A DNA stretch of 20,006 bases from Candidatus Hodarchaeota archaeon (GCA_048886685.1 JBHLKM010000019.1:1-20006), one strand, 5' to 3'. Numbered from the stretch's first letter, positions 1 through 14,666 are shown. Notes: generated by a model from the sequence alone, not told the origin. Translations and numbers: made by a program.

Positions 1-2915
1 TATACATCAACAGAAATAGTAACAATATTTCCCAATTCTAAAGGATCCTCACTCATAGTAAAATTTTCAATGGTAGGTCCAGTCGCTTCTACAACTGTTA
101 TATTTCCACTGGTCACATTCCAGTTATTTTCCATATCTTGCATATAAATGGTATATGAATGATTTCCTATGGCAGGTTTCCACTTACTCCAACTCCACGT
201 ATCTCCTACACTATTAACCATTGTATGATTTGAGGAATCATATTCTAAAAGAACTTGATTCACTCCTGATCCCGGGGAATCATAAACTTTAATTGTGATT
301 GTTTCATTTTGGCCTAGCTGTAATGGGTCCGCACTTTCAATTAGATCAGAAAAAGTTGGTGCTGTAGTATCTATCACTTCGATGGTACCGATAGTAGAAT
401 TCCAATTATTATAGTTATCCTGCATCCATATCGTATATGTATAATTATCTAAGCTGTTGGGAGTCCATGAGTCATATTGCCACGCATTTCCGGATATATT
501 TGCCATGGTATGATTTCTGATTACATGATCAGAGTCTTCAAATTCGATTTTCACTTGATTAATTCCTGAAGGATCAGAAACATTAATAGTAATAACCTCC
601 GTATCTCCTAATTCTAGTGGATCTGAACTTTCTATTAGATTGGAATAAGTAGGGGGGATATTATCGACATTTTCTTCTGAACCTACAGTCATGAAAGATT
701 GAGGATTGTATTGGTTGTTATATTCCGTTGCAATCCAGGCTGCGGGATGGGCAACATCTACAACTCGAACTTCATCGATTTTACCGTTCCATTCTTGTTC
801 TATAATTCCAGAACTTCTTCCAATATTGAGATAATGATTCCCTGTTTGTGAACTTCCACTATATGATGCTGTATTTCTTTGTATACCATCAAGATAGATT
901 CTTAATAAAGAATTAGTTGAATCTGCTACTCCAACGACGTAATGCCAATTATTATCATTAATCAAATTTAGATTGATTGAAACATTTTGATTAGAATCGA
1001 CATAAAAAGCAAAATCACTATTATTAAGCTTTCCGAGCCAATAATTTTGATTAGGCGGGTTTAAAGACCATTTAGTTATAACGACCTCTACATCAGGTTC
1101 ATTATCGCTTGTTTTTATCCACGCTGAAATAGTCATATCACTATTCAAATCAAGGCTATTGTCATCCGAAACATTTACACATGCTTCATTTTCATCATTA
1201 AATATAAGCCCCCCATCTATTTTCCCAGAAGTTTGATTTGATGAAAATAAATTAACAGCTGTTCCATCATTGTTATATGCTGTACTATCAGAAAATTGAG
1301 GTGCAGGGGCTGAAGGATTCTCTTTAAGATGCCAAACTCCCTTATAATTTGTATTCCATACTCCTGAAGGATTTTCTTTTGAGCTCATTGTAGAATTACC
1401 ATAATACATACGAATAACGGTATCAAAAGATGGTGATAACTCTGGTATACGAACCCAAGCTACTAATTGAGCATGACTGTCGTTATAAGACTTATCAAAG
1501 AATTCAATTTCATGGTCTAACCAAGAAAAACCATTAGAAAAAGCAATATCATTCCCATTTAATTGAACTTTATCATCCAAATCTTCATCAACAATAGAAA
1601 TTAAAACTGGGAAATTAAGAAGATCCTCTGAACCACTCACCATTGAATGATCTATTATTATATCTTTATAATATGCGAAATATTGAGCATTAGGTATATG
1701 ATCTATTACGTGATCTTCTTCTCCAATCGAATAAAAAGAACTTGGATCATATTGATTATTGTATTCTGTTTCAAACCAACCGGGTGAACGAACACTTGAA
1801 GTGATTCTAAATTCCTCAATTATTGCGTTAATAACATCAGTGTGATCTAAGTCAGTACCGATTGCATAGTTTGTCCACGAAGAAGAATTCCCTAAGGCTT
1901 CGCTATCATAATCATCTACATTTAATGTTCCGTTAAGATAAGCTCTTTTACGCCCAACTGATCCACCTTCCCATGTTATAACTAAATGATAAAATTGATC
2001 CTCCCATCCATCGAAGGAACATTCTATATCAAAAGTATTTCCAAGATGATTTTTAATCCGACTTATAATCCTGTTATCCCCTCCCAAAATTATATCAGGT
2101 CTGGCATTAGTTGCGGTAAAATATCTTTGATACTGAGAATATAATTGAGGTCTAAACCACATTTCAAGAGAGAGGGTGGTTGTCGGATTAGAAAAGCCTG
2201 AAGTGATTTCAAGATATTCTGAATTACTCATTCCATAATTTGTCGAATCGAACCTTATAGCTTTACCGATAACCCCATCTACAAGATCTCCAGAATTAAA
2301 TCCTGAACCAGGAGTCAAGTCATAATTATTAGCAGTGCTATCCAGAACGGAGGTCGAGCTTGGATCTTGATTCATATGATAAACTGCATAATAATTACTA
2401 TCCCATACACCTTCAGGATTTTGTCTCGAATCCATTGTATCATTCCCATAATACATGCTAAAAACAGTATCAGTGGTGACTGATAATATTGGAATTCGAA
2501 CCCATGCCACCAATTTAGCATGAGTGCTATTATAAGTCTTTTCAAATAGTTCAATTTCATGGTTTAACCACGTTGTATCATTCGCAAAAGCAATATCATT
2601 TCCATTTGATTGAACCGCATCATGTAAATCTGAATCAAAAATCGAAATTAGCACAGGGAAATTATTATGATCCACTGTTCCATTAACCCGATTATGGTCA
2701 ATTGTTATCGTTTTATAATATTTAAAAAAGTGTTTATTAGGGGGTCCACTTGAAGAAGTATGAACTAAAGTTTTTGAATCATCCATTAATTTTTCATAAT
2801 TTCTTGCATTGATATCGCTGTTTGGAAGGAGAAAAATTGAAGTTATGTTAAAGATGAGGATAAAGGAAACGATATAACAATATTTTCTTCTCTTAATATA
2901 CCTTTTTTCTATCGT
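1..2915 (-). CDS. Large surface protein/adhesin paralog, 3'-truncated by the window edge: N-terminal signal/TM, 2x (DUF2341-like + LamG/ConA-like), then Ig-like stalk repeats
   Basis: Not in the ORF track. Hand translation gives an open frame from 2915 to the edge (~971 codons): (T)IEKRYIKRRKYCYIVSFILIFNITSIFLLP...FKYYKTITIDH...NFPVLISIFDSDL...GNDIAF...WVRIP...YYGN...YKGVWHL...TISAWIK...WHYVVGV...IYLDG...NGKIDEVRV...WIATEYNNQ. It is collinear with 5099..11284. The start codon is uncertain (ACG at the homologous position). Confidence 0.93.
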
Positions 2916-3398: not shown

Positions 3399-4505
3399 TT
3401 AATAAATTTCAAAAAATTTCCATATTCTAAGGAATTTCATATTTGGTATTTTGTATTTTTCGTAAATCTTGGGAGCATCTAATCCAACCATAATGGTTTG
3501 TATGTTTTTATAACAAGCTATTTGCATAACGGGATGATAATCTTTTTCGCTACATACAATTCCAAACCCTTTAATCCTACATCCTTCCAGAATTTCTACC
3601 CCATTGGCAATTAAATAACTGTCGATATCACTGCAAGCTCGTCCTTTAGGAACTTTTAAGATATGAAAAAATTCGTTATTTCGATTCTTCATACAAAAGT
3701 TGATTATAATTTTATTTGATAGTTCGAGATCAGTATCCAGTTTTGAGAAATAATGAATTATGTAATCGTCTTGAGTGTGAAAAGAGTGTTTAATAAATTC
3801 TAATAATAACTGATGAGCTCTCTCTAAAACAAGTTCAAAATTAAAGGGGATTATTTCTCTCAAAGATCGAATAAAATCAGGAAGATCCACTAAAACGACG
3901 AATTTATCTTTATGATATTTTAGAAATCTATTATAATCACTATATTTCATATTTAATAGTGGCATTTCCTCCATTTTAAAAATATGATTCGGTATTTCTT
4001 TTAAACCTGACTCAATTAAATTTTCCTTACTTATTTCAACATATCGCATATTATTTATGCGATTATCACTTTTTTCTTGATTATAAGCTTTAGAATTAGT
4101 GTTTTCGTTATAGTTGATAAAAAGCGGAGGAATACCTTCCCATTCATCCCGAAAAATATTATAACAGTAAGGTTTTAAATGAGTTTCACAATCGTTTCCA
4201 GTACAACTGAATCTTATTAATAATCTATGATTCCCATTATCTACAAGTTCTCGATTGTAAGATTCTCCACAAGATTCGCATACAGTTTTAAATAAATCTT
4301 CATACTGAATGTAATCTTTTATCAAGGCGAATGGTGTATCTTTATACTCACATTTTATATTCCAGCATTGATACTTGTCATACATCTCATTTGAATCTAC
4401 TTTTTTCAACATAACATTCTTGCAAAAAGGGCAATATACCCTCCTTTTTATGTAATTTTTATCAATATCAATGCTTTCAATCTCTGATTTTAATAAAAAA
4501 TACAT
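3399..4505 (-). CDS. Double Zn-ribbon + NYN/LabA (PIN-like) domain protein, putative RNase with atypical active-site motifs
   Basis: N-terminal CPFC..CWNIKC and CESC..CTGNDC pairs. C-terminal VVLVDLPD, SDIDSYLIANG and IVCSEKDYHPVMQ..TIMVG resemble the NYN motifs VFxDxxN, KxVDxxL and LxSGDxDFxP..VxVxG. The ATG at 4505 (MYFLL) is preferred over the track's 4568, but either is possible. Confidence 0.7.
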   Translation of the reverse strand: MYFLLKSEIESIDIDKNYIKRRVYCPFCKNVMLKKVDSNEMYDKYQCWNIKCEYKDTPFALIKDYIQYEDLFKTVCESCGESYNRELVDNGNHRLLIRFSCTGNDCETHLKPYCYNIFRDEWEGIPPLFINYNENTNSKAYNQEKSDNRINNMRYVEISKENLIESGLKEIPNHIFKMEEMPLLNMKYSDYNRFLKYHKDKFVVLVDLPDFIRSLREIIPFNFELVLERAHQLLLEFIKHSFHTQDDYIIHYFSKLDTDLELSNKIIINFCMKNRNNEFFHILKVPKGRACSDIDSYLIANGVEILEGCRIKGFGIVCSEKDYHPVMQIACYKNIQTIMVGLDAPKIYEKYKIPNMKFLRIWKFFEIY

Positions 4506-4682
4506 TTTTTTATACCTAAACCCAAATATTAGAGATAAACTAATTATGTGACATAAAATAAATTGCATATCTATTTAATAAATGTTTACATTTTTATCGG
4601 AAGTCTTCAGAATGGATCTCAAAAATTAGTAATAAATATCCTTTTTACTGATAAAATCTAGTGGGGAATATAAAATTGCTAA

Positions 4683-4934
4683 TTAAAACAAATTATTATA
4701 GAGGTTTTCAATATTTTCTATCTTTTCATTCAGTAAATTGAGTAAAATGATATTATCACCAATATAGGTATTTTCCAAAAAGTAATTTATAATGTCATTT
4801 GCAGTTTTCTGATCTTTTTTACTGTATTTATTCTTTTTAGATTTAAACAAGATCTCAAACTCCATTTTCAACCATTCCAAATCTTCCATCAAATTCTCTT
4901 CCAAAATTTCATCAAGTTTACTACTTACTCTCAT
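4683..4934 (-). CDS. Small acidic/helical hypothetical protein (83 aa)
   Basis: ATG preceded by purine-rich AGGATAAGGGGAAGGA. The composition is protein-like and amphipathic, and the ORF has no overlaps. Confidence 0.75.
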   Translation of the reverse strand: MRVSSKLDEILEENLMEDLEWLKMEFEILFKSKKNKYSKKDQKTANDIINYFLENTYIGDNIILLNLLNEKIENIENLYNNLF

Positions 4935-4994
4935 TCCTTCCCCTTATCCTAATTGGTTTTATCCTAAAAATTTTATTCTTTTCGAATAGTCGAT

Positions 4995-5019
4995 GAATTG
5001 AGATTAATTAACTCAATTC
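4995..5019. promoter_or_regulatory. Near-perfect palindrome (operator or hairpin)
   Basis: gaattgag[a]ttaattaactcaattc is a perfect palindrome apart from one extra A. It lies 60 nt upstream of the 83-aa ORF. Confidence 0.45.
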
Positions 5020-5039
5020 TAAATGAAAAACCTTAACCA

Positions 5040-5098: not shown

Positions 5099-8000
5099 TT
5101 AGTTATTATCAAATTTTTTCATACAGGCATTCTTTTTGTATCTAAATTCTTCTATACTCCTTATTTCTTCTTCCCTTTCAAGCTGGACCAATAATTGGGA
5201 AATTTTTTCACATCTTTCATATAATTGAGCGGCATTTTCAAAATAGCTATTCTTGTATAATGATTCTGCTTCTTTATCCATATCAGATCGATATTTTTCT
5301 AAATCTACTAATATCCAATTATTATTTTGAAAGTAATTAATTAATTCAGCCTGATAAAAACTTGCAGCTTCTGGATCTCTTAATTTTTTCGATATATTAA
5401 TTAGATCCTGATGGATTTCAAAAATTTGTACCGCATTTCTCTCAATTTTTGCTTGGTCTAATAGTTCTAACCTCTTTTCTCGTTCTTCTATTAAACCATC
5501 AATTCCAGCTAGTAATTCTGAAAATAAGTTTGCTTCTTCCGCTCTTCCTACGTTTAAAAGAAGATCTCTTCCAAGCTTAAATTGCTCTTGAGCTTCCAAA
5601 TATGCCCCTTCAGCGAATAACTCCTCTCCTAAAGATTTAATTTTGTTAACTTGAATTTCTATTTCTTGTTCTTCGGTTAATTGTTTACTAATTAATAGTT
5701 TATCTTGTTTATCATCGAAGATAGGGGCTGAAAGGTTATTAAGATGGGAAGTAATAATTTTAAGTGGTACTTTTTTGCGTGGCGGAGCGATCTCCTTTTT
5801 TAACCTTTTTCTTACTATAACTATAGCTGTTACAGAACCAATTACACTCGCTATTATTATAATGATAATAATAAAATTGTTGTTACCAGGAGGACCACTC
5901 TCAATTGAGATAACAGTGAATGTTCCTGTAGTGTAATTACTTTGCTGCCCTAGTCCGTCAATTTGAGCTAAGAAATAGTAATATCTCCCTATTGGGAGTT
6001 CTTCGGGTAATTCACAATAACTACTTTCTGTATCTATATTTGTAATATTAAAAATATAAACATGATCTGTTTCGTTATCAATTATCAAAATGTAATATAA
6101 AATACCTGAAGGATCAGAACCATCCACCCAATCAAAAACAAGAATGCCACTAACGTCTCCACTTGGACTGATAGCAAATAATGGAGATGAGGGCGGGGTA
6201 GTATCCTGAACAGTAATATTAGCTGTTAAGAGATTCCAATTACCGCTCATATCCTCCATATAGATTCTATATTGATGCACAATCCAATTAGTTGGAGTCC
6301 ATGAATCATATTGCCATGTATTCCCATAGATATTTGTCATTGAATAATTTACACCTTCAAATTCTATTAAAACTTGGTTAATATCAGCCACATCATAAAC
6401 ATCTATTCTTATGGTCGGATTATCCCCCAACTCTAATGGATCAGCACTTTCGAACAAATTAGAGTATGTGGGTAAAACAGTATCTTGAAATAATATCGAA
6501 CTACTAACATAATTCAAATTATCATTGTTGTCTGTAATATAGATTTTATATGTATAATTACCAATTGAATCTGGCCTCCAGGAATTATGTTGCCATATAT
6601 CTGGACCTATGTTCGTCATAGTATGATTAGAGTTTTCATATTCTATTAAAACTCCTCCTGGATCCTTGATGCCCGCTAAATCGGTACAATTAATCGAAAT
6701 AATTAATTCACTCCCCAATTCGACAATGCTCGCGCTTTCATTTAAGTCTGAATACATCGGAGGAGTTAAATCTTGAACTAAAATTGAATCACTTACAGAG
6801 CCCCAATTATTGTTATTATCTTTTACCCATATTATGAAGGACCAATTTCCAGTAGGAGGACCTGGACTCCAAGAATCATATTGCCATATATCTCCAGTCA
6901 TATTTGTCATGGTATGATTATCGATTATATGATAAGAGTCTTCATACTCGATTAATGCTTCGTTAATACCTGATAAATCAGTGGAATTTACTGATATTAT
7001 TATTGTATTTCCCAGTTCTAAAGGTTCCTCGCTCTTGATAACATTTTCTATCACAGGTACAGTTGTATCAACAACATCGAAACTACCTGTAAAAGAATTC
7101 CAATTATTTAATGTATCATTTGCATAAATTACATATATAACCGTTCCTACCCAAGATCTCGTCCAAGTACATTCGTAGGTATTCCCCACAGTATGATTCA
7201 TTGTATAATTAGCACTTTCCAATTCAATTAAAACAGTCCCTATAGAACTATTATCATATACATCAACAGAAATAGTAACAATATTTCCCAATTCTAAAGG
7301 ATCCTCACTCATAGTAAAATTTTCAATGGTAGGCCCAGTTGCTTCTACAACTGTTATATTTCCATTGGTCACATTCCAGTTATTCTCCATATCTTGCATA
7401 TAAATGGTATATGAATAAATTACTGGGGATGCAGGCTTCCACTTACTCCAACTCCACGTATCTCCTACACTATTAATCATTGTATGATTTGAAGAATCAT
7501 ATTCTAAAAGAACTTGATTCACTCCTGAACCAGGAGAATCATAAACTTTAATAGTAATTGTTTCATTTTGGCCTAGCTGTAATGGGTCCGCACTTTCAAT
7601 TAGATCTGAAAAAGTCGGTGCTGTAGTATCTATCACTTCGATGGTACCGCTAGTAGAATTCCAATTATCATAGTTATCCTGCATCCATATCGTATATGAA
7701 TAATTATCAACGCTGCTAGGAGTCCATGAGTCATATTGCCACGCATTTCCGGATATATTTGCCATGGTATGATTTCTGATTACATGATCAGAGTCTTCAA
7801 ATTCGATTTTCACTTGATTAATTCCTGAAGGATCAGAAACATTAATAGTAATAATTTCAGTTTCCCCCAATTCTAACGGATTAGAACTTTCTGTTAAATT
7901 TGAATAAGTAGGAGGTGTTTTATCTAACTTTTTTTCTGAACCTATCGTCAAGAAGGCTTGAGGATTATATTGGTTATTATATTCTGTTTTTATCCAATCA

Positions 8001-11000
8001 GCAGAGTGAACCGTATCTAAAACGCGGACTTCATCAATCTGACCATTAAATTCATTCGGGAAAATATCAACATTTACATCTGCTATCCTCAAGGGCGCGT
8101 TACCTGTATCAGGCGTTGCCGTGGCACCAGTGTTTTGAGCGCGCTGAACGCCATTGACAAAAAGGGTTAGGGTGTCCGCACCCGCATCATGCACTCCTAC
8201 TACATGATACCATTGGCCTAAACTAAGCGATGTTACCCAGCTGGCTGCAACCGCATTACCAAATCCCGTAGAGGGTTCATAATAAACCTCAATCGCCTGA
8301 CCGGCAGTTAGAATTGCGTTCTCAAGCATAATTCCATAATTGTGGTTCTCACCGGGGTTATCGCTGGACATCCCCTTCCCCACTACGCTCCGTAGATCTC
8401 CAGCCGGGGGCAAATCATTGGTATTTATCCAAGCTGAAACTGTAAAGGAACCTGGAATGGTAAGCGAGGAGGAATCATTAGCCTCTAAATAATCATCGCC
8501 CCCGTCAAAATCTAAACTACCGTCGATCTGTCCTGGCACTTGGTCACCGCTCGTCATACTTCCGTAATCTGTGCCATCATTATTATTGGGAGTTGAATCC
8601 TTAAATGCTGGACTGGAATCCGTAGGGTCTTCGCTTAAATGCCACACGCCCTTATAATTAGTGTTCCATACTCCTTCAGGATTTTCTCTAGAACTCATTG
8701 TTGCATTACCATAATACATGCGAACAATAGTATTTTCTGACATTGATAGTCTTGGTATAGATACCCACGCAATAAGTTGAGCATGTGTACCGTTATAAGT
8801 TTGTTTAAAGAGCTCTATTTCATGATCCAACCATAGACCATTATAGGCAAATGCAATATCATTTCCATTTGCCTGTTCCACATCAAATTTTAAATCTGAA
8901 TCTAAAATAGAAATTAACAAGGGAAAATTAGTAAGGTCATATGAACCACTTACGATGGTATAGTCTATTATAATTTCTTTATAGTATTTGAAATATTGAA
9001 AATTAGGGAGAATACCAGATAGTGGATATTCTTTACTAATTGAATAGAAAGAAGAAGGATCATTTTGATTTTTGTATTCTGTTTTAATCCAGTCTGCGGA
9101 GCGAGCACTGTCAGAGATGCGAATTTCGTCTATTTTGCCATCTGCGGACCATCTATAGGTGCTCCACCCGGGATTTGCGATTCCAATTCTTAAAGCACCG
9201 ATGTCATAATCCCAGGGAGTAGTGCCACCAGTCCAAGTAGTTTGATCTTCAAGGTTTCCATTTACGTACAACTTAAGATAACCATCAAGGTTACTTACAA
9301 CAGCAACTATATGATAATATTTTCCTGGACCATAGGTTCCACTTGAGACAGCCCTTACAGAAGGTCCCCCGATATCAAGCCAGTGTTCCATAGCAAAATA
9401 CTGATCATGATCATAATATAGCCCATGATGCGGATTCCTTTTGATCATAATCCCATATCTGCGGCTGTTATTGTTAAGGGGCACTCCCGGAGGGACTTGA
9501 TCAGGGTAAAACCAAGCCTCGTAAGTATAATAATCTCCTTCATTGATACTGTTGAGTGAAGCATTAGCTGGCAATTGTACATACTCATCTTCAATATCAC
9601 CCTTAAAATCGATAGCACCATCTGATTTACCTGTTGAGCCAAATGTAGGGCTTCCATAATCAGTTCCATCATTTCCATTAATAGTTGAATCTTTTATTGC
9701 ATCAGTTCCACCAGTTGATTCACTTAGATGCCAAACGCCCTTATAATTACTGTCCCATACGCCTTCAGGATTTTCTCGCGATCCCATAGTTGAATTCCCA
9801 TAATACATTCGAATAATTGTATCCAAAGATGTTGAAAGTATTGGTATCCGAACCCAAGCTACTAATTGTGCGTGAGTCCCATTATAAGTCTGATTGAAGA
9901 GTTCAAGTTCATGGTCTAACCATTCTGTATTATAGGCAAATGCAATATCGTTCCCCGATGATGAATACACATGATCTTTTAAATCTGAATCTAAAAGAGA
10001 TATCAAAACAGAAAAGTTAAGAAGATCATTAGAACCATATACCATCGAATGTTCTACTACTATTTCTTTATAATACGCGAAGTAATGAGCATTAGATGGA
10101 TGACCTGACACACTTTTTTCTTTTCCAATTGAATAAAAAGAATTTGGTTCATTTTGATTGTTGTAAGATGTGCTTACCCATCCACTCGAAAGAGCTATAT
10201 TCAATAACCTAGACTCATCAAGTTGTCCATGAAACCCCTCGCTTACCATACCATCGTAGCCAAGATAGAATGGATCATTACTGGCTAAGAAATGATCAGA
10301 AGCGGTGTCACTTGCTATGCTAACTCCATCTCTGTATATTTTCCTAGTTTTGGTCGAGGCATCGTAAGTACAGGACCAATGATGCCAATCTGTATCAGTA
10401 TAGCTCAGTGAAGTATCCAAGTCATCCGCCCAAAAGGCAAATGTAAAGCTATTATTGCTACGGAATCCTACATGAAGGCCTGTATTTAGACCGGCGGGTC
10501 CTTGTTGAAAAATAATATCCGCACTGGTTGAACTTCCCCGTTTGGCCCATGTTGACACTGAAAAGCTTGATGAAGCGATATCGATTGATGAACCCATATC
10601 GATATAATCATCAGTTCCATCGAAATCAATACTACCATCAATTTGACCGTCTATTTGATCCGCTGAATTCATACTACCTTGAGGAGTCCCATCATGGTTG
10701 TTGGAAGTTGAGTCATATATTGTTCCCGTAGGTTCTTCTGATAAATGCCACACTCCCTCATAATTTGTATTCCATACTCCTGTTGGATTTTCTCTTGAGC
10801 TCATTGTAGTATTTCCATAATAGAGAGATATTTTGGTATCTAAATAGGTAGAAAGGGATGGTACTCGAACCCATACATTTAATTTTGCATGAGTTGAATT
10901 ATAATCCTGTTCGAATAATTCTATCTCATGATCTAACCAACCTGTATTGTCGGCAAAAGCTATATCATTCCCGGTTGATTGAACATCATCATGTAAATCT

Positions 11001-11284
11001 GAATCCAAAAGAGAAATTAAAATTGGAAAATTTTCATGGCTCCCAGTTCCAGAAACCTTGGAATGGTCAATAATTATTACTTTATAATATTTGAAGTAGT
11101 GTCTATTAGGAAGACTGCTTGAAGACGTTTGAATTAAGGATTTTGGACTTCCCAATGAATTTTCATAATCATTTTCCTTAATAGCGCCAATTGGAAGAAA
11201 AACAATAGATATAAGGTTAATAATGAAGAAAAAAAACACTAAATAACAATACTTTTTTCGCTTATAATATCTTTTTCTAATCAT
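5099..11284 (-). CDS. Giant type-I membrane surface protein (2061 aa): signal/TM, 3x (DUF2341-like + LamG/ConA-like), ~7 Ig-like repeats, TM, ~230-aa helical TPR-like cytoplasmic tail
   Basis: Three units of YYKxIxID..NFxxLIS..DIAF..WVxxP..YYGN..GVWHLSE..DST..DF.G..xSxW..WxH..YxxG..GxxDExR..WxxTxYxNQ. Stalk repeats follow DTTxP..PLELG..NHTM..WQY..W..D..NWN. The TM is IIIIIIIASVIGSVTAIVIV followed by RKR. There are many N-x-S/T sequons. Confidence 0.93.
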   Translation of the reverse strand: MIRKRYYKRKKYCYLVFFFFIINLISIVFLPIGAIKENDYENSLGSPKSLIQTSSSSLPNRHYFKYYKVIIIDHSKVSGTGSHENFPILISLLDSDLHDDVQSTGNDIAFADNTGWLDHEIELFEQDYNSTHAKLNVWVRVPSLSTYLDTKISLYYGNTTMSSRENPTGVWNTNYEGVWHLSEEPTGTIYDSTSNNHDGTPQGSMNSADQIDGQIDGSIDFDGTDDYIDMGSSIDIASSSFSVSTWAKRGSSTSADIIFQQGPAGLNTGLHVGFRSNNSFTFAFWADDLDTSLSYTDTDWHHWSCTYDASTKTRKIYRDGVSIASDTASDHFLASNDPFYLGYDGMVSEGFHGQLDESRLLNIALSSGWVSTSYNNQNEPNSFYSIGKEKSVSGHPSNAHYFAYYKEIVVEHSMVYGSNDLLNFSVLISLLDSDLKDHVYSSSGNDIAFAYNTEWLDHELELFNQTYNGTHAQLVAWVRIPILSTSLDTIIRMYYGNSTMGSRENPEGVWDSNYKGVWHLSESTGGTDAIKDSTINGNDGTDYGSPTFGSTGKSDGAIDFKGDIEDEYVQLPANASLNSINEGDYYTYEAWFYPDQVPPGVPLNNNSRRYGIMIKRNPHHGLYYDHDQYFAMEHWLDIGGPSVRAVSSGTYGPGKYYHIVAVVSNLDGYLKLYVNGNLEDQTTWTGGTTPWDYDIGALRIGIANPGWSTYRWSADGKIDEIRISDSARSADWIKTEYKNQNDPSSFYSISKEYPLSGILPNFQYFKYYKEIIIDYTIVSGSYDLTNFPLLISILDSDLKFDVEQANGNDIAFAYNGLWLDHEIELFKQTYNGTHAQLIAWVSIPRLSMSENTIVRMYYGNATMSSRENPEGVWNTNYKGVWHLSEDPTDSSPAFKDSTPNNNDGTDYGSMTSGDQVPGQIDGSLDFDGGDDYLEANDSSSLTIPGSFTVSAWINTNDLPPAGDLRSVVGKGMSSDNPGENHNYGIMLENAILTAGQAIEVYYEPSTGFGNAVAASWVTSLSLGQWYHVVGVHDAGADTLTLFVNGVQRAQNTGATATPDTGNAPLRIADVNVDIFPNEFNGQIDEVRVLDTVHSADWIKTEYNNQYNPQAFLTIGSEKKLDKTPPTYSNLTESSNPLELGETEIITINVSDPSGINQVKIEFEDSDHVIRNHTMANISGNAWQYDSWTPSSVDNYSYTIWMQDNYDNWNSTSGTIEVIDTTAPTFSDLIESADPLQLGQNETITIKVYDSPGSGVNQVLLEYDSSNHTMINSVGDTWSWSKWKPASPVIYSYTIYMQDMENNWNVTNGNITVVEATGPTIENFTMSEDPLELGNIVTISVDVYDNSSIGTVLIELESANYTMNHTVGNTYECTWTRSWVGTVIYVIYANDTLNNWNSFTGSFDVVDTTVPVIENVIKSEEPLELGNTIIISVNSTDLSGINEALIEYEDSYHIIDNHTMTNMTGDIWQYDSWSPGPPTGNWSFIIWVKDNNNNWGSVSDSILVQDLTPPMYSDLNESASIVELGSELIISINCTDLAGIKDPGGVLIEYENSNHTMTNIGPDIWQHNSWRPDSIGNYTYKIYITDNNDNLNYVSSSILFQDTVLPTYSNLFESADPLELGDNPTIRIDVYDVADINQVLIEFEGVNYSMTNIYGNTWQYDSWTPTNWIVHQYRIYMEDMSGNWNLLTANITVQDTTPPSSPLFAISPSGDVSGILVFDWVDGSDPSGILYYILIIDNETDHVYIFNITNIDTESSYCELPEELPIGRYYYFLAQIDGLGQQSNYTTGTFTVISIESGPPGNNNFIIIIIIIASVIGSVTAIVIVRKRLKKEIAPPRKKVPLKIITSHLNNLSAPIFDDKQDKLLISKQLTEEQEIEIQVNKIKSLGEELFAEGAYLEAQEQFKLGRDLLLNVGRAEEANLFSELLAGIDGLIEEREKRLELLDQAKIERNAVQIFEIHQDLINISKKLRDPEAASFYQAELINYFQNNNWILVDLEKYRSDMDKEAESLYKNSYFENAAQLYERCEKISQLLVQLEREEEIRSIEEFRYKKNACMKKFDNN
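5915..7924 (-). repeat. Tandem ~95-aa Ig-like stalk repeats (six similar plus one divergent)
   Basis: Units begin DKTPP, DTTAP, EATGP, DTTVP, DLTPP, DTVLP and DTTPP, at roughly 280-300 nt spacing. Confidence 0.85.
7257..7854. repeat. Near-identical direct repeat of window 1-595 (stalk region shared by the two paralogs)
   Basis: Position 1 matches 7257 (tatacatcaacagaaatagtaacaatatttcccaattctaaagg...). There are scattered substitutions and one 3-nt indel. Identity drops after ...cattaatagtaataa. Confidence 0.95.
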
Positions 11285-11408: not shown

Positions 11409-11771
11409 CTCAAGCTTAGATGAATTTAATTTACATTATCTGGAGTAAGATATGAAATTGTTTTGAAGTATATTAGATTTCTAAATTAGATATTAAGTTA
11501 AATTCAAAATTAAAAAAGATGAATAAAAATAGATTTTGACTAAATAATTTTTACCTCTTTTTGGATTTCTACAATATCCTTCATAGTTTCATCAATATAT
11601 AGTATTATTTTAACAAATTTGTTAAAAAATTATAGTTTTTTCTATTGTTCAATTTTTTAATTTTTTCTAAATTACTAATATAAATTTTAAATATTAAGAT
11701 GATTTTCTATTATCTGTTAAAGCAAGAGCCAAGTTGCGAATATCATATAAAAATTGATTAAGTTTAAAAAA

Positions 11772-12614
11772 ATGAATGAAATTCTAAAAACAGAGAAGAA
11801 GAAGATCCATAGCTTATTTATCCTCAAAGAGACAGGCACTTGCATTTATAGTAGAAATTTTACAAACAAATTTGAAAAAGTAGATCTTGATTTAGTATCA
11901 GGTTTCTTTGCTGCGTTTTTTTCATTTGCAGAGGAGGTCACCTCTGAAAAAATAGAAAATCTTGAAATGGTTAATGTTAGATTACTATTTATATCAAGCA
12001 AGGATGTTTTAGAGGATCCGAAGGAAAATCTTATCTTTTGTCTTATGGCTGATATTGATGAGAATAAGGTGTTTTTAAGGAACAGTTTATTTATGATAAT
12101 GTCGCATTTTTACAATGTCTATGAAGATTTAGTGCCAGATCGTGTAAAAGGGACTCCCAGAACGGTGTGGGATACGAAGAAGGATCATATTGTAATAAAA
12201 AATGATGAATTGAATTCTATTATTGATTCAATTATATCAGGAGAATGGGAAATAGATAGTTATGAAAGTTATTATAAAGAGGTAGAAAATTATCTTCATG
12301 ATCTGATCGCTGAAAATGAGATTTTGGGAGCTGCGCTATTATCTATTACGGGAAAAATTATAAATTCTAGTTTATCACAGAATATATTTGCACGTGCTAT
12401 AAAAGAATTGGAAATTAGACTCCAGATGGGATATTCAGATCTCCCTCTATTAATTTATGTTTTACAAGATGATTGCAAGGTTTTTACCAAAGAAATTGTA
12501 AACAATGAATTTTTAATTCTCCATTTTGACTCTTCAATTCCCTTAGGAATGTGTAATTTAACCTCAACTAAAATAGCAAATACTATTAAGAAATTGTTTA
12601 AAAGCTGGAGTTAA
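11772..12614 (+). CDS. Longin-like + roadblock/profilin-like two-domain protein (Asgard eukaryotic-signature type)
   Basis: The N-terminal IHSLFILKETGTCIYSRNF..DLDLVSGFFAAFFSFAEEV..IENLEM fits the longin pattern. The C-terminal EILGAALLSITGKIINSSL..LILHF..IPLGM fits the roadblock pattern. The ATG at 11772 is preferred to the TTG at 11754. Confidence 0.75.
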   Translation: MNEILKTEKKKIHSLFILKETGTCIYSRNFTNKFEKVDLDLVSGFFAAFFSFAEEVTSEKIENLEMVNVRLLFISSKDVLEDPKENLIFCLMADIDENKVFLRNSLFMIMSHFYNVYEDLVPDRVKGTPRTVWDTKKDHIVIKNDELNSIIDSIISGEWEIDSYESYYKEVENYLHDLIAENEILGAALLSITGKIINSSLSQNIFARAIKELEIRLQMGYSDLPLLIYVLQDDCKVFTKEIVNNEFLILHFDSSIPLGMCNLTSTKIANTIKKLFKSWS

Positions 12615-14126: not shown

Positions 14127-14666
14127 ATGGGGTTAACAGAACAATTATCAGATATTAACATTAAAATTATTCTGGCGGATTTGGGTAAAAATGAGGCTCT
14201 TCAACGAGATATCGAAGATAAATTTGGCGCAAATTATAAATTATCAGTGGGCATAGATATTTTAAGAAAATGTATAACGTTTGAGAATGGGCTAAATGGA
14301 AATCTTTCAATATGGGATGTATGTGGAGAAAATATATTTGAAGTAGTTAAAGATTTGTATCGTAAAGAAGACGGAATAGCATTAATTGCTTTTGATCTAA
14401 CAAAAATAAAAACTTATAATCAAATGATCAAATATCTTTCAAAAATTCGTCAATTCAATTTGGAAGAATATCCATATGTATTAATAGGAAATAAGGCATC
14501 CTTTTTAATGAAAGACGGTTTTTTTATGTACTCAGATGACGCCAAAATGCTTGCAGAAAGTGAAGGATGTATTTATCTGGAGACTTCCTCTCAAATTGAT
14601 TTAGATATTGATAAAGCTTTTAACCGATTAGTAAAAATAATCCTGAGACCTAAAGTACTGGCATAA
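14127..14666 (+). CDS. Rab/Ras-like small GTPase fold with degenerate G-motifs (probable pseudo-GTPase)
   Basis: Collinear with Rab-like proteins: KIILAD-LGKN (G1), YKLSVGIDI (G2), LSIWDVCGE (G3), IAFDLT, VLIGNKAS (G4), YLETSSQ..IDKAF (G5). No C-terminal prenylation cysteines. Confidence 0.85.
   Translation: MGLTEQLSDINIKIILADLGKNEALQRDIEDKFGANYKLSVGIDILRKCITFENGLNGNLSIWDVCGENIFEVVKDLYRKEDGIALIAFDLTKIKTYNQMIKYLSKIRQFNLEEYPYVLIGNKASFLMKDGFFMYSDDAKMLAESEGCIYLETSSQIDLDIDKAFNRLVKIILRPKVLA

Follow-up and report, generated by a model that had tools for sequence, protein, structure and literature searches.

How do GC-rich modules come to lie within a surface protein gene of an AT-rich archaeal genome? 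The question is raised by a stretch of 20,006 nucleotides (nt) from Candidatus Hodarchaeota archaeon (GCA_048886685.1, JBHLKM010000019.1:1-20006), hereafter referred to as the window, in which a gene of the DUF2341-LamG type, P0001, carries three LamG cores (L1, L2 and L3) between conserved DUF2341 scaffolds. A preliminary description of the window regarded these cores as GC-rich cassettes embedded in an AT-rich scaffold, imported by recombination at the conserved flanks, and proposed a system for the diversification of adhesins. The analysis described below indicates that the third core, L3, was very probably recombined as foreign DNA into a resident DUF2341-LamG frame. The window corresponds to contig C19 (positions 1-20006) of G000, a metagenome-assembled genome (MAG) of 4.42 Mb in 47 contigs with 30.9% GC and 8.4% contamination, the close relatives of which are titled Promethearchaeota, an Asgard group.

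P0001 is a member of the DUF2341-LamG_3 repeat surface proteins (PF10102 and PF13385). Both families match in three stretches, with scores above the curated cut-offs (PF13385 212 bits, PF10102 72.7 bits), and segmentation of the protein with hidden Markov models (HMMs) built for this analysis reads S-C-S-C-S-C, scaffold (S) and core (C) alternating. An N-terminal anchor is followed by three DUF2341-LamG units, an Ig-like stalk, a transmembrane (TM) helix and a helical cytoplasmic tail, and the gene, as judged from its sequence, most likely specifies a type-I surface protein of giant size in this Promethearchaeota (Asgard) archaeon. The parts of the gene are listed below, where GC3 denotes GC content at third codon positions and z its deviation from expectation.

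5099..11284, minus strand: whole gene P0001, 2061 amino acids (aa), from the open reading frame (ORF) call, the translation and the Pfam matches (three each to PF10102 and PF13385).
10742..11089, minus strand: DUF2341 scaffold 1, by the own scaffold HMM; native composition, GC3 z = 0.2.
10181..10741, minus strand: LamG core of type L1, by the own HMM; modest GC3 excess, z = 3.3.
9725..10075, minus strand: DUF2341 scaffold 2, by the own HMM; native composition.
9092..9724, minus strand: LamG core of type L2, by the own HMM; modest GC3 excess, z = 2.8.
8636..8986, minus strand: DUF2341 scaffold 3, native; its nearest relatives (75-77%) precede an unrelated core, type A.
8640..8698, minus strand: 5' frame motif SRENPEGVWNTNYKGVWHLS, zone of the 5' recombination breakpoints; identity to the partners shifts within 8650-8710.
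About 8054..8690, minus strand: the L3 cassette very probably exchanged, ~640 bp, GC 0.48 and GC3 0.41; from the steps in DNA identity and the codon test.
7970..8044, minus strand: 3' frame, comprising the last LamG strand GQIDEVRV and the helix WIKTEYNNQ, which would stay with the resident gene; from the end of the paralog match and the structure model.
5915..7957, minus strand: stalk of Ig-like repeats, native; its modules are common to paralogs on contigs C19, C4, C22 and C15.
5813..5875, minus strand: TM helix, an Ile run and then ASVIGSVTAIVIV, read from the translation.
5102..5812, minus strand: helical cytoplasmic tail, ~237 aa, without a family match.

The GC profile of the window in steps of 300 nt peaks at 0.51 (8101-8400), 0.42 (9301-9600) and 0.43 (10201-10500), against a background of 0.30-0.33 in the P0001 scaffolds and 0.31 in the genome. 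The peaks coincide with the three LamG cores of P0001 and the profile is low in the scaffolds, as had been anticipated from seven hand counts of G+C over 60-nt lines (33, 35, 30, 27, 14, 14 and 14), all of which a recount reproduced exactly. For a separation of codon choice from amino-acid content, the GC3 of each segment was compared with that expected from its own residues under the codon usage of the genome. The observed and expected values are 0.41 and 0.23 for L3 (z = 6.9), 0.32 and 0.23 for L1 (z = 3.3) and 0.30 and 0.225 for L2 (z = 2.8); GC3 is native (z from -1.1 to 1.2) in the stalk, in each of the three scaffolds and in the two cores of the neighbouring paralog P0002. Among 4933 windows of 170 codons taken genome-wide, the stretch matched by the Pfam LamG model falls in the top 0.24% for L3 (GC3 0.41), the top 0.6% for L2 (0.36) and the top 1.2% for L1 (0.34), and the P0001 cores are the three highest in GC3 among the 29 LamG and 31 DUF2341 domains of the genome. 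The contrast of GC-rich core and AT-rich scaffold thus exists for these three cores but is not a trait of the family, for which the genome means of GC3 are 0.246 (LamG) and 0.233 (DUF2341). Similarly, the earlier suggestion that amino-acid composition is insufficient to explain the contrast holds for L3, in which a part due to codon choice remains, but about 60% of the GC excess of L3 over the scaffold (~0.10 of 0.165) and most of the excess of L1 and L2 does come from amino-acid composition. Only L3 is clearly foreign by codon use.

The arrangement of cores among related genes was examined in 49 proteins, which were cut into scaffolds and cores by two HMMs derived from the units of this genome, the cores being typed by average linkage at 55% global identity. 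Single-linkage clustering on BLAST matches, which lumped 70 cores into one group, was replaced by this procedure. Sixteen recurring core types were obtained, with identities of 55-97% within and 20-38% between types, and the types are freely combined, as in the following orders (x marks a core that is unique in the set or only partial).

P0001, the window gene: L1-L2-L3
P0171, P0085 and P0170: L1-L2-A
P0153: L3-L2
L019: x-L3-M
P0003: G-x-x-x-L2-L3
P0020: L3-L2-x
P0184: L2-J-D
P0185: H-L2
P0195: C-L1
P0161: L1-C-F
L022, Anaerolineaceae: x-L3-K
P0155, 'Syntrophobacterales': x-x-L3-x-K

The position of L3 in the array is the first in P0153 and in the locus L023 of genome G012, the second in L019, the third in P0001 and the sixth in P0003; type B occurs in three genes of the window genome, at positions 1, 1 and 2. 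P0171, P0085 and P0170 are 70-100% identical to P0001 in windows of 40 residues over the full length, except at aa ~920-1080, where identity drops to 10-35%. Between the same flanks, these homologues carry at the L3 position an unrelated core, type A, which is 34% identical to L3, and a parsimony argument over the four collinear genes suggests that type A was the earlier occupant of this position. L019 (Promethearchaeota MAG DZ3S.305, 38-kb contig) is also collinear with P0001, with scaffolds at 65-90% and stalk and tail at 50-92%; none of its three core positions agrees with that of P0001, and in second place it has a core of the L3 type at 93%. As no synteny was found between the window and the L019 flanks, such relatives are referred to here as collinear homologues and not as orthologous loci. 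In G012/L023 and P0153 the scaffold that precedes the L3 type shares 91-95% identity with the first scaffold of P0001. The L1 and L2 types recur in other Asgard proteins in other combinations (at 73-94% and 56-96%, respectively), were found among 398 genomes of the phylum in only 2 and 4 other genomes, of the same genus, and in the nearest homologues mostly travel with their own scaffolds; L3 is therefore the recent replacement in P0001. In short, the set and order of cores change from one relative to another, in agreement with the domain swapping originally proposed.

The frame around the cores is conserved as had been described. The four junction sites (1330-1377, 8640-8686, 9730-9776 and 10746-10792) all encode ENPxGVWxxNYxGVWH in similar DNA, and WxxTEYxNQ closes each core. 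A blastn search of P0001 against its own genome retrieves ~25 paralogous DUF2341 scaffolds at 65-76% and no match to the core interiors (8056-8484, 9142-9650 and 10166-10601), which bears out the earlier statement that the cores are very different while the scaffold is conserved. The segment 7257-8053 is 89.8% identical to P0002, and the match ends at 8053, inside the last LamG strand. When the DNA of the window and of L019 is compared in sliding windows of 60 nt, identity is 95-100% within 8080-8680 and 60-78% outside, and the steps are sharp, within 30-60 nt. An alignment with the DNA of G012 (A1) shows that it tracks unit 3 of the window near letter-for-letter up to the junction motif, and then unit 1. 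Exact matches at the junctions extend over only ~12-20 nt. The 5' breakpoint was thus correctly placed in the ENPxGVW..GVWHL junction (8650-8710), but the 3' breakpoint, at ~8054, lies in the GQIDEVRV strand, ~15-25 codons upstream of the WIKTEYNNQ motif that had been named as the other border; the breakpoints between type A and L3 were mapped at the protein level.

In an AlphaFold (AF2) model of unit 3 (predicted local distance difference test score 76), the DUF2341 beta-sandwich is followed by a low-confidence linker at SRENPEGVW, a jelly roll, the last strand GQIDEVRVLD (322-331) and the helix WIKTEYNNQY (337-348). By this model the exchanged DNA (~8054-8690) would reach from the linker and the first strand to the penultimate one, so that only the final strand and the helix stay resident. 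Foldseek searches with unit 3 retrieve lectin-like jelly rolls with E of ~1e-9 to 1e-11, namely the HCN subdomain of clostridial neurotoxin binding domains and domain 4 of AbnA, as a generic fold match only. In one copy of the cassette, that of L022, the first third (L022:6000-6100, against window 8512-8650) has no relation to L3 but looks like the beginning of the L2 type, and a breakpoint lies near 8512-8530; breakpoints are therefore not confined to the motifs, and the mosaic extends below the level of the domain.

The L3 type, defined by at least 74% aa identity, was found in few places when one genome per GTDB species was scanned. It occurs in three further MAGs of Promethearchaeota, at two loci of an Anaerolineaceae chromosome that is closed and has 3.4 Mb (CP070708.1; 76-77% aa over the full core) and at the end of a Dehalococcoidia contig. 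A metagenome scan added L056, a White Oak River contig (84%), and L057 (77%). DUF2341-LamG repeats in the same arrangement make up the bacterial proteins, the genes of which have a Cache/HAMP histidine kinase and a PepX peptidase as neighbours; given the closed chromosome, the bacterial neighbours and a scaffold clade of their own, the bacterial context of L3 is real. The similarity extends to the DNA, where blastn aligns the following stretches.

Window 7973-8512: L022 (Anaerolineaceae), 87.6% over 540 nt, ungapped.
Window 7985-8647: L021 (Anaerolineaceae), 83.1% over 664 nt.
Window 8020-8686: L056, 89.7% over 667 nt.
Window 7971-8674: L057, 84.7% over 704 nt.

The remainder of the 6.3-kb gene gives no blastn alignment to any of these four loci. 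At identical residues the same codon is used by the window and L019 in a fraction of 0.94 within L3 and of 0.60-0.72 in other parts of the gene, and within L3 the archaeon and Anaerolineaceae agree at 0.80-0.81; this pattern at synonymous sites cannot come from selection at the protein level. Since L3 resides in DUF2341-LamG proteins of both Asgard archaea and bacteria, exchange crosses the boundary between the domains of life at a sub-genic scale. Anaerolineae cannot be regarded as the native home of the cassette, as no L3 was found in 400 other genomes of the class beyond the Anaerolineaceae genome itself.

The histories of cores and scaffolds are in conflict. The scaffolds that precede L3 cores of 92-97% identity are themselves only 50-66% identical, while the scaffolds nearest to scaffold 3 of P0001 (75-77%) carry the type A core. 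In the core tree, L1, L2, L3 and A each form one clade, with support in the Shimodaira-Hasegawa-like approximate likelihood-ratio test (SH-aLRT) of 98-100 (98 for L3). The scaffold tree groups by host and protein, all bacterial scaffolds forming one clade (99); on it the L3-bearing scaffolds need five changes, and the approximately unbiased (AU) test rejects a single clade for them (difference in log-likelihood 195, p = 6.2e-7). The LamG and DUF2341 trees, the congruence of which would have spoken against swapping in the preliminary description, are hence incongruent for L3. The gene accordingly has the features of a recombination mosaic, with alternative modules between the same flanks, a conflict between the phylogenies of module and frame, and sharp steps in DNA identity that include synonymous sites.

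Two further patterns were observed in these trees. Scaffold units of one protein cluster together (six in P0003, three in P0186 and two in P0211), which fits concerted evolution or a lineage-specific duplication of the DUF2341 unit. In the core tree, type K (Ana_L022.3, P0155.5) groups with type J (G0_C6_7095.2, P0184.2) with an SH-aLRT of 98 and on long branches, which suggests older exchanges of other cassette types between bacteria and Asgard archaea.

In a rival course of events, a whole bacterial DUF2341-LamG gene would have been transferred and its scaffolds then overwritten by resident paralogs through gene conversion, so that the core alone remained foreign. The clustering of scaffolds of one protein, seen in P0003, P0186, P0211 and the bacterial proteins as in concerted evolution, and the common unit architecture of the bacterial proteins are in its favour, but such a course is improbable, as P0001 matches P0171, P0085 and P0170 collinearly and at 70-100% identity in its N-terminus, L1, L2, all three scaffolds, stalk, TM helix and tail, with only the third core differing, and as identity changes within 30-60 nt at its borders. 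Because P0001 is collinear with its homologues outside the third core, the gene as a whole is resident.

The composition of the L3 copies provides information on where the cassette evolved. L3 keeps a GC of 0.45-0.49 and a GC3 of 0.38-0.45 in hosts the background GC of which ranges from 0.28 to 0.57 (four archaeal hosts 0.28-0.36, Anaerolineaceae 0.49-0.50, L057 0.50 and L056 0.57), so that in L056 the cassette forms a GC trough and not a peak. Singleton changes in the three archaeal copies comprise 12 from GC to AT and none in the opposite direction, as against 48 and 50, respectively, in the four higher-GC copies. Pairwise identity is 74-85% among the higher-GC copies and 90-95% among the archaeal copies. 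Such a pattern is that of a sequence which had its equilibrium near 50% GC and has come into AT-rich genomes only recently. The DNA tree of the eight L3 copies is a star with no supported branch, and the direction of transfer cannot be read from its topology; the composition suggests that transfer was from a bacterium-like donor to the archaeon. The proposal that cores were imported from higher-GC donors by recombination at the flanks therefore stands for L3, by its GC3, its decay and its equilibrium only in hosts near 50% GC, but for L1 and L2 only shuffling among genes is seen.

These data bear also on the view that no transfer took place, L3 being an old type kept by purifying selection with its GC3 raised by codon selection or GC-biased gene conversion. 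Core types are indeed conserved at 70-97% across Asgard classes, and L1 and L2, which mostly travel with their scaffolds, have a small GC3 excess. For L3 this explanation is already contradicted and is extremely improbable: codon agreement at identical residues is 0.94 in L3 against 0.60-0.72 elsewhere in the gene and 0.80 between archaeon and bacterium, the distribution is patchy (2/52 and 1/401 genomes, as given below), the 12:0 decay from GC to AT in archaeal hosts is at odds with GC being maintained, and a history common with the scaffolds is rejected by the AU test.

Several points weigh against the conclusion that L3 was exchanged as a foreign cassette. The codons of the ENP..GVWHL junction show synonymous conservation no higher than that of other conserved scaffold codons, and a special recombination signal at the junction was discarded as a candidate in the absence of any such extra conservation. 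Of 52 genomes of the genus to which the window belongs, only 2 were found to have L3, as was 1 of the 401 Anaerolineae genomes sampled, and the tree of its DNA gives no branching that would point to a donor. Binning is the basis of the taxon names given to proteins from short MAG contigs ('Hodarchaeota', 'Syntrophobacterales', 'Thorarchaeota'), which may therefore be wrong, and several of the archaeal MAGs (DZ3S/DZ3M) may stem from one study and would then not be independent. Finally, the Logan unitigs of the runs in which the stretch occurs have breaks at 8051/8066 and between 8478 and 8662, and the core unitig, with four differences from the window, has 3-4 times the depth of its flanks; the order of scaffold 3, L3 and stalk in this genome is provisional, and an assembler could have threaded two L3-bearing genes together.

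The last of these points leads to the possibility of a chimera, in which a GC-rich stretch of a co-occurring bacterium was joined into archaeal contigs at conserved motifs during assembly or binning. The fragmented and partly contaminated state of the MAG (47 contigs, 8.4%), the location of family genes at contig ends, the unitig breaks at the cassette borders and the three- to fourfold depth of the core unitig would agree with it, and it could still explain the particular order of units in this genome. As an explanation of the cassette it is nevertheless quite improbable, since archaeal L3 is at most 90% identical to any bacterial copy, forms a tight group of its own (90-95%) and has its own changes from GC to AT; since it lies in frame with low-GC scaffolds on both sides in separate contigs of 38 kb (L019), 57 kb (L023) and 16.7 kb (P0153), each in a different context, with the JGI metagenome proteins P0156, P0157 and P0159 behaving likewise; and since exact matches at the junctions are only ~12-20 nt long. 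The depth and the breaks of the core unitig indicate that the cassette sits in several contexts in the source community. In runs of three unrelated studies (mangrove, sediment and soil), depth peaks over 8032-8647, the pieces listed have 0-3 differences with more divergent variants alongside, and loose ends at 7961/7962 continue not into the stalk but into a sequence resembling a linker.

The exchange of L3 may be envisaged as follows. Homologous recombination in the conserved frame would replace ~640 bp, nearly the whole jelly roll, the end of DUF2341 with the ENPxGVW..GVWHL strand serving on the 5' side and the GxIDEVRxS strand with the WIxTEYNNQ helix on the 3' side, and would leave the resident scaffold, stalk, TM helix and tail in place. 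In P0001, L1 and L2 are types that the collinear homologues have as well, and L3 would have replaced the type A core after arriving as foreign DNA from a lineage of ~48-50% GC. The same cassette circulates among Asgard genomes at different array positions, and is present as well in DUF2341-LamG proteins of Chloroflexota and other bacteria. Recombination would occur wherever the frame is similar enough, on paralogs and on DNA taken up from neighbours, with selection keeping new combinations of heads; a swap may thereby change the predicted ligand specificity under diversifying selection.

A dedicated diversification system, as the preliminary description had it, found no support. No recombinase, reverse transcriptase (RT) or integrase was found among the window and neighbouring ORFs, and the only inverted repeats in the window are three AT-rich pairs that look like chance; dedicated exchange machinery was rejected on these grounds. 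No silent donor cassettes were detected, as all 29 LamG cores lie in open frames of 919-2680 aa without stops and the genome has no second copy of L3. A diversity-generating retroelement is not indicated, with no RT family in any window ORF and no DNA repeat of any core in the genome, nor is an invertase shufflon, with no site-specific recombinase and no flanking inverted repeats beyond the AT-rich pairs. Because no dedicated machinery was found, ordinary homologous recombination (RecA/RadA-type) following DNA uptake is the likely route.

The nearest described archaeal case is VARTIG of Thermococcales, where one domain of ~200 aa in a large archaeal surface protein varies and its similarity does not follow the species tree, which was attributed to recombination between species in situ (Makarova et al. 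2021, PMC8416519). P0001 works like VARTIG, in that a single domain of a large archaeal surface protein is exchanged, but is not a member, as domain family, variable position and taxon differ: in VARTIG a C-terminal Ig domain varies (arCOG07710), small donor Ig genes lie downstream and the host range is Thermococcales only, whereas P0001 has an internal LamG jelly roll in repeated units, no small donor genes, an Asgard host and a cassette that bacteria carry as well, at 83-90% DNA identity. For DUF2341 proteins encoded in type IV pilus loci of archaea and bacteria, a role as PilY1-like adhesins of the pilus tip has been proposed (Makarova et al. 2016, PMC4858521). They share with P0001 the DUF2341 domain and the proposed adhesin role; unlike them, P0001 is accompanied by no pilus genes in the window, and its product is a receptor-like chain that has a TM anchor and a tail in the cytoplasm.

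Mosaic adhesin and receptor-binding genes that arise by homologous recombination are known from phage tail-fibre and receptor-binding proteins and from streptococcal and neisserial surface proteins. In these, too, a conserved frame is the substrate of recombination, the binding module is replaced and the result is a compositional and phylogenetic mosaic; however, exchange there takes place within a species, genus or phage group, whereas L3 crosses the boundary between Archaea and Bacteria and moves between array positions. Gene conversion from silent cassettes, as in pilE/pilS of Neisseria and vlsE of Borrelia, resembles the present case in that related copies serve as a reservoir from which part of a surface protein is replaced, but uses promoterless or truncated cassettes, of which the window genome has none, nor a second copy of the core. 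No paper was found that describes an exchange of cassettes among DUF2341-LamG proteins or surface proteins of Asgard archaea. New in the present analysis are the proof at codon level that L3 is foreign, the finding that a single cassette moves between array positions, the formal conflict of the trees, and the occurrence of the cassette in bacteria at 83-90% DNA identity.

P0001 belongs to a large family within its genome, with 29 LamG and 31 DUF2341 matches in 17 long open frames, several of them at contig ends. Its neighbour in the window is as follows.

3..2786, minus strand: left paralog P0002, cut by the contig end, with two units and cores of types B (1779-2372) and C (741-1322), both with native GC3.

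The P0002 stalk is 90% identical to that of P0001, and the part of the P0001 stalk at 5099-6850 is 77-79% identical to stalks on contigs C4 and C22. Five family genes run off contig ends (C6:1, C19:3, C22:59851, C16:109080 and C4:267548). The family breaks the assembly, and stalk modules are common to paralogs. Family genes are often clustered: on the L023 contig of G012 a second, divergent one (3550-5035) lies just upstream of the L3-bearing gene, and further clusters are found on C6, C20 and C22 in G000. In the member at C15:91660-96519 (plus strand) the match of one LamG core to the core HMM is split into two parts ~300 aa apart (aa 191-274 and 571-655), and by its sequence this core looks like a jelly roll with a large inserted segment. 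At 14127-14666 (plus strand), 3 kb from P0001, lies a Ras/Roc-family small GTPase (PF00071, E = 4e-22), and a divergent upstream ORF at 11754-12614 (plus strand) shows a faint similarity of the MglB/roadblock kind, with an E of 0.004 that falls far short of the cut-off. A small GTPase beside a receptor-like gene is the usual Asgard setting; archaeal helix-turn-helix regulators also lie in the neighbourhood.

The transfer of gene fragments between two domains of life has seldom been documented at such resolution. DUF2341-LamG genes break assemblies and can mislead binning and annotation, and L1, L2, L3 and type A are now available as concrete domains for ligand tests. No closer relatives of eukaryotes are known than the Asgard archaea, which have bacterial partners with which they live in close contact and which they sense and bind. 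At the present locus the outward-facing, lectin-like modules of a receptor-like protein would be exchanged as units, in a manner resembling exon shuffling, with the stalk, the membrane anchor and the cytoplasmic tail remaining fixed. A wider interpretation, offered tentatively and as rather doubtful, is that anoxic sediments hold a pool of LamG lectin cassettes exchanged sub-genically between Asgard archaea and bacteria (Chloroflexota, Desulfobacterota), each inserting them into its own DUF2341 frames, such that the receptors would read common glycan or cell-surface ligands and the heads of Asgard receptors would be partly of recent bacterial origin. If such a shared pool exists, the exchanged heads may have roles in, for example, the recognition of syntrophic partners or the avoidance of viruses.

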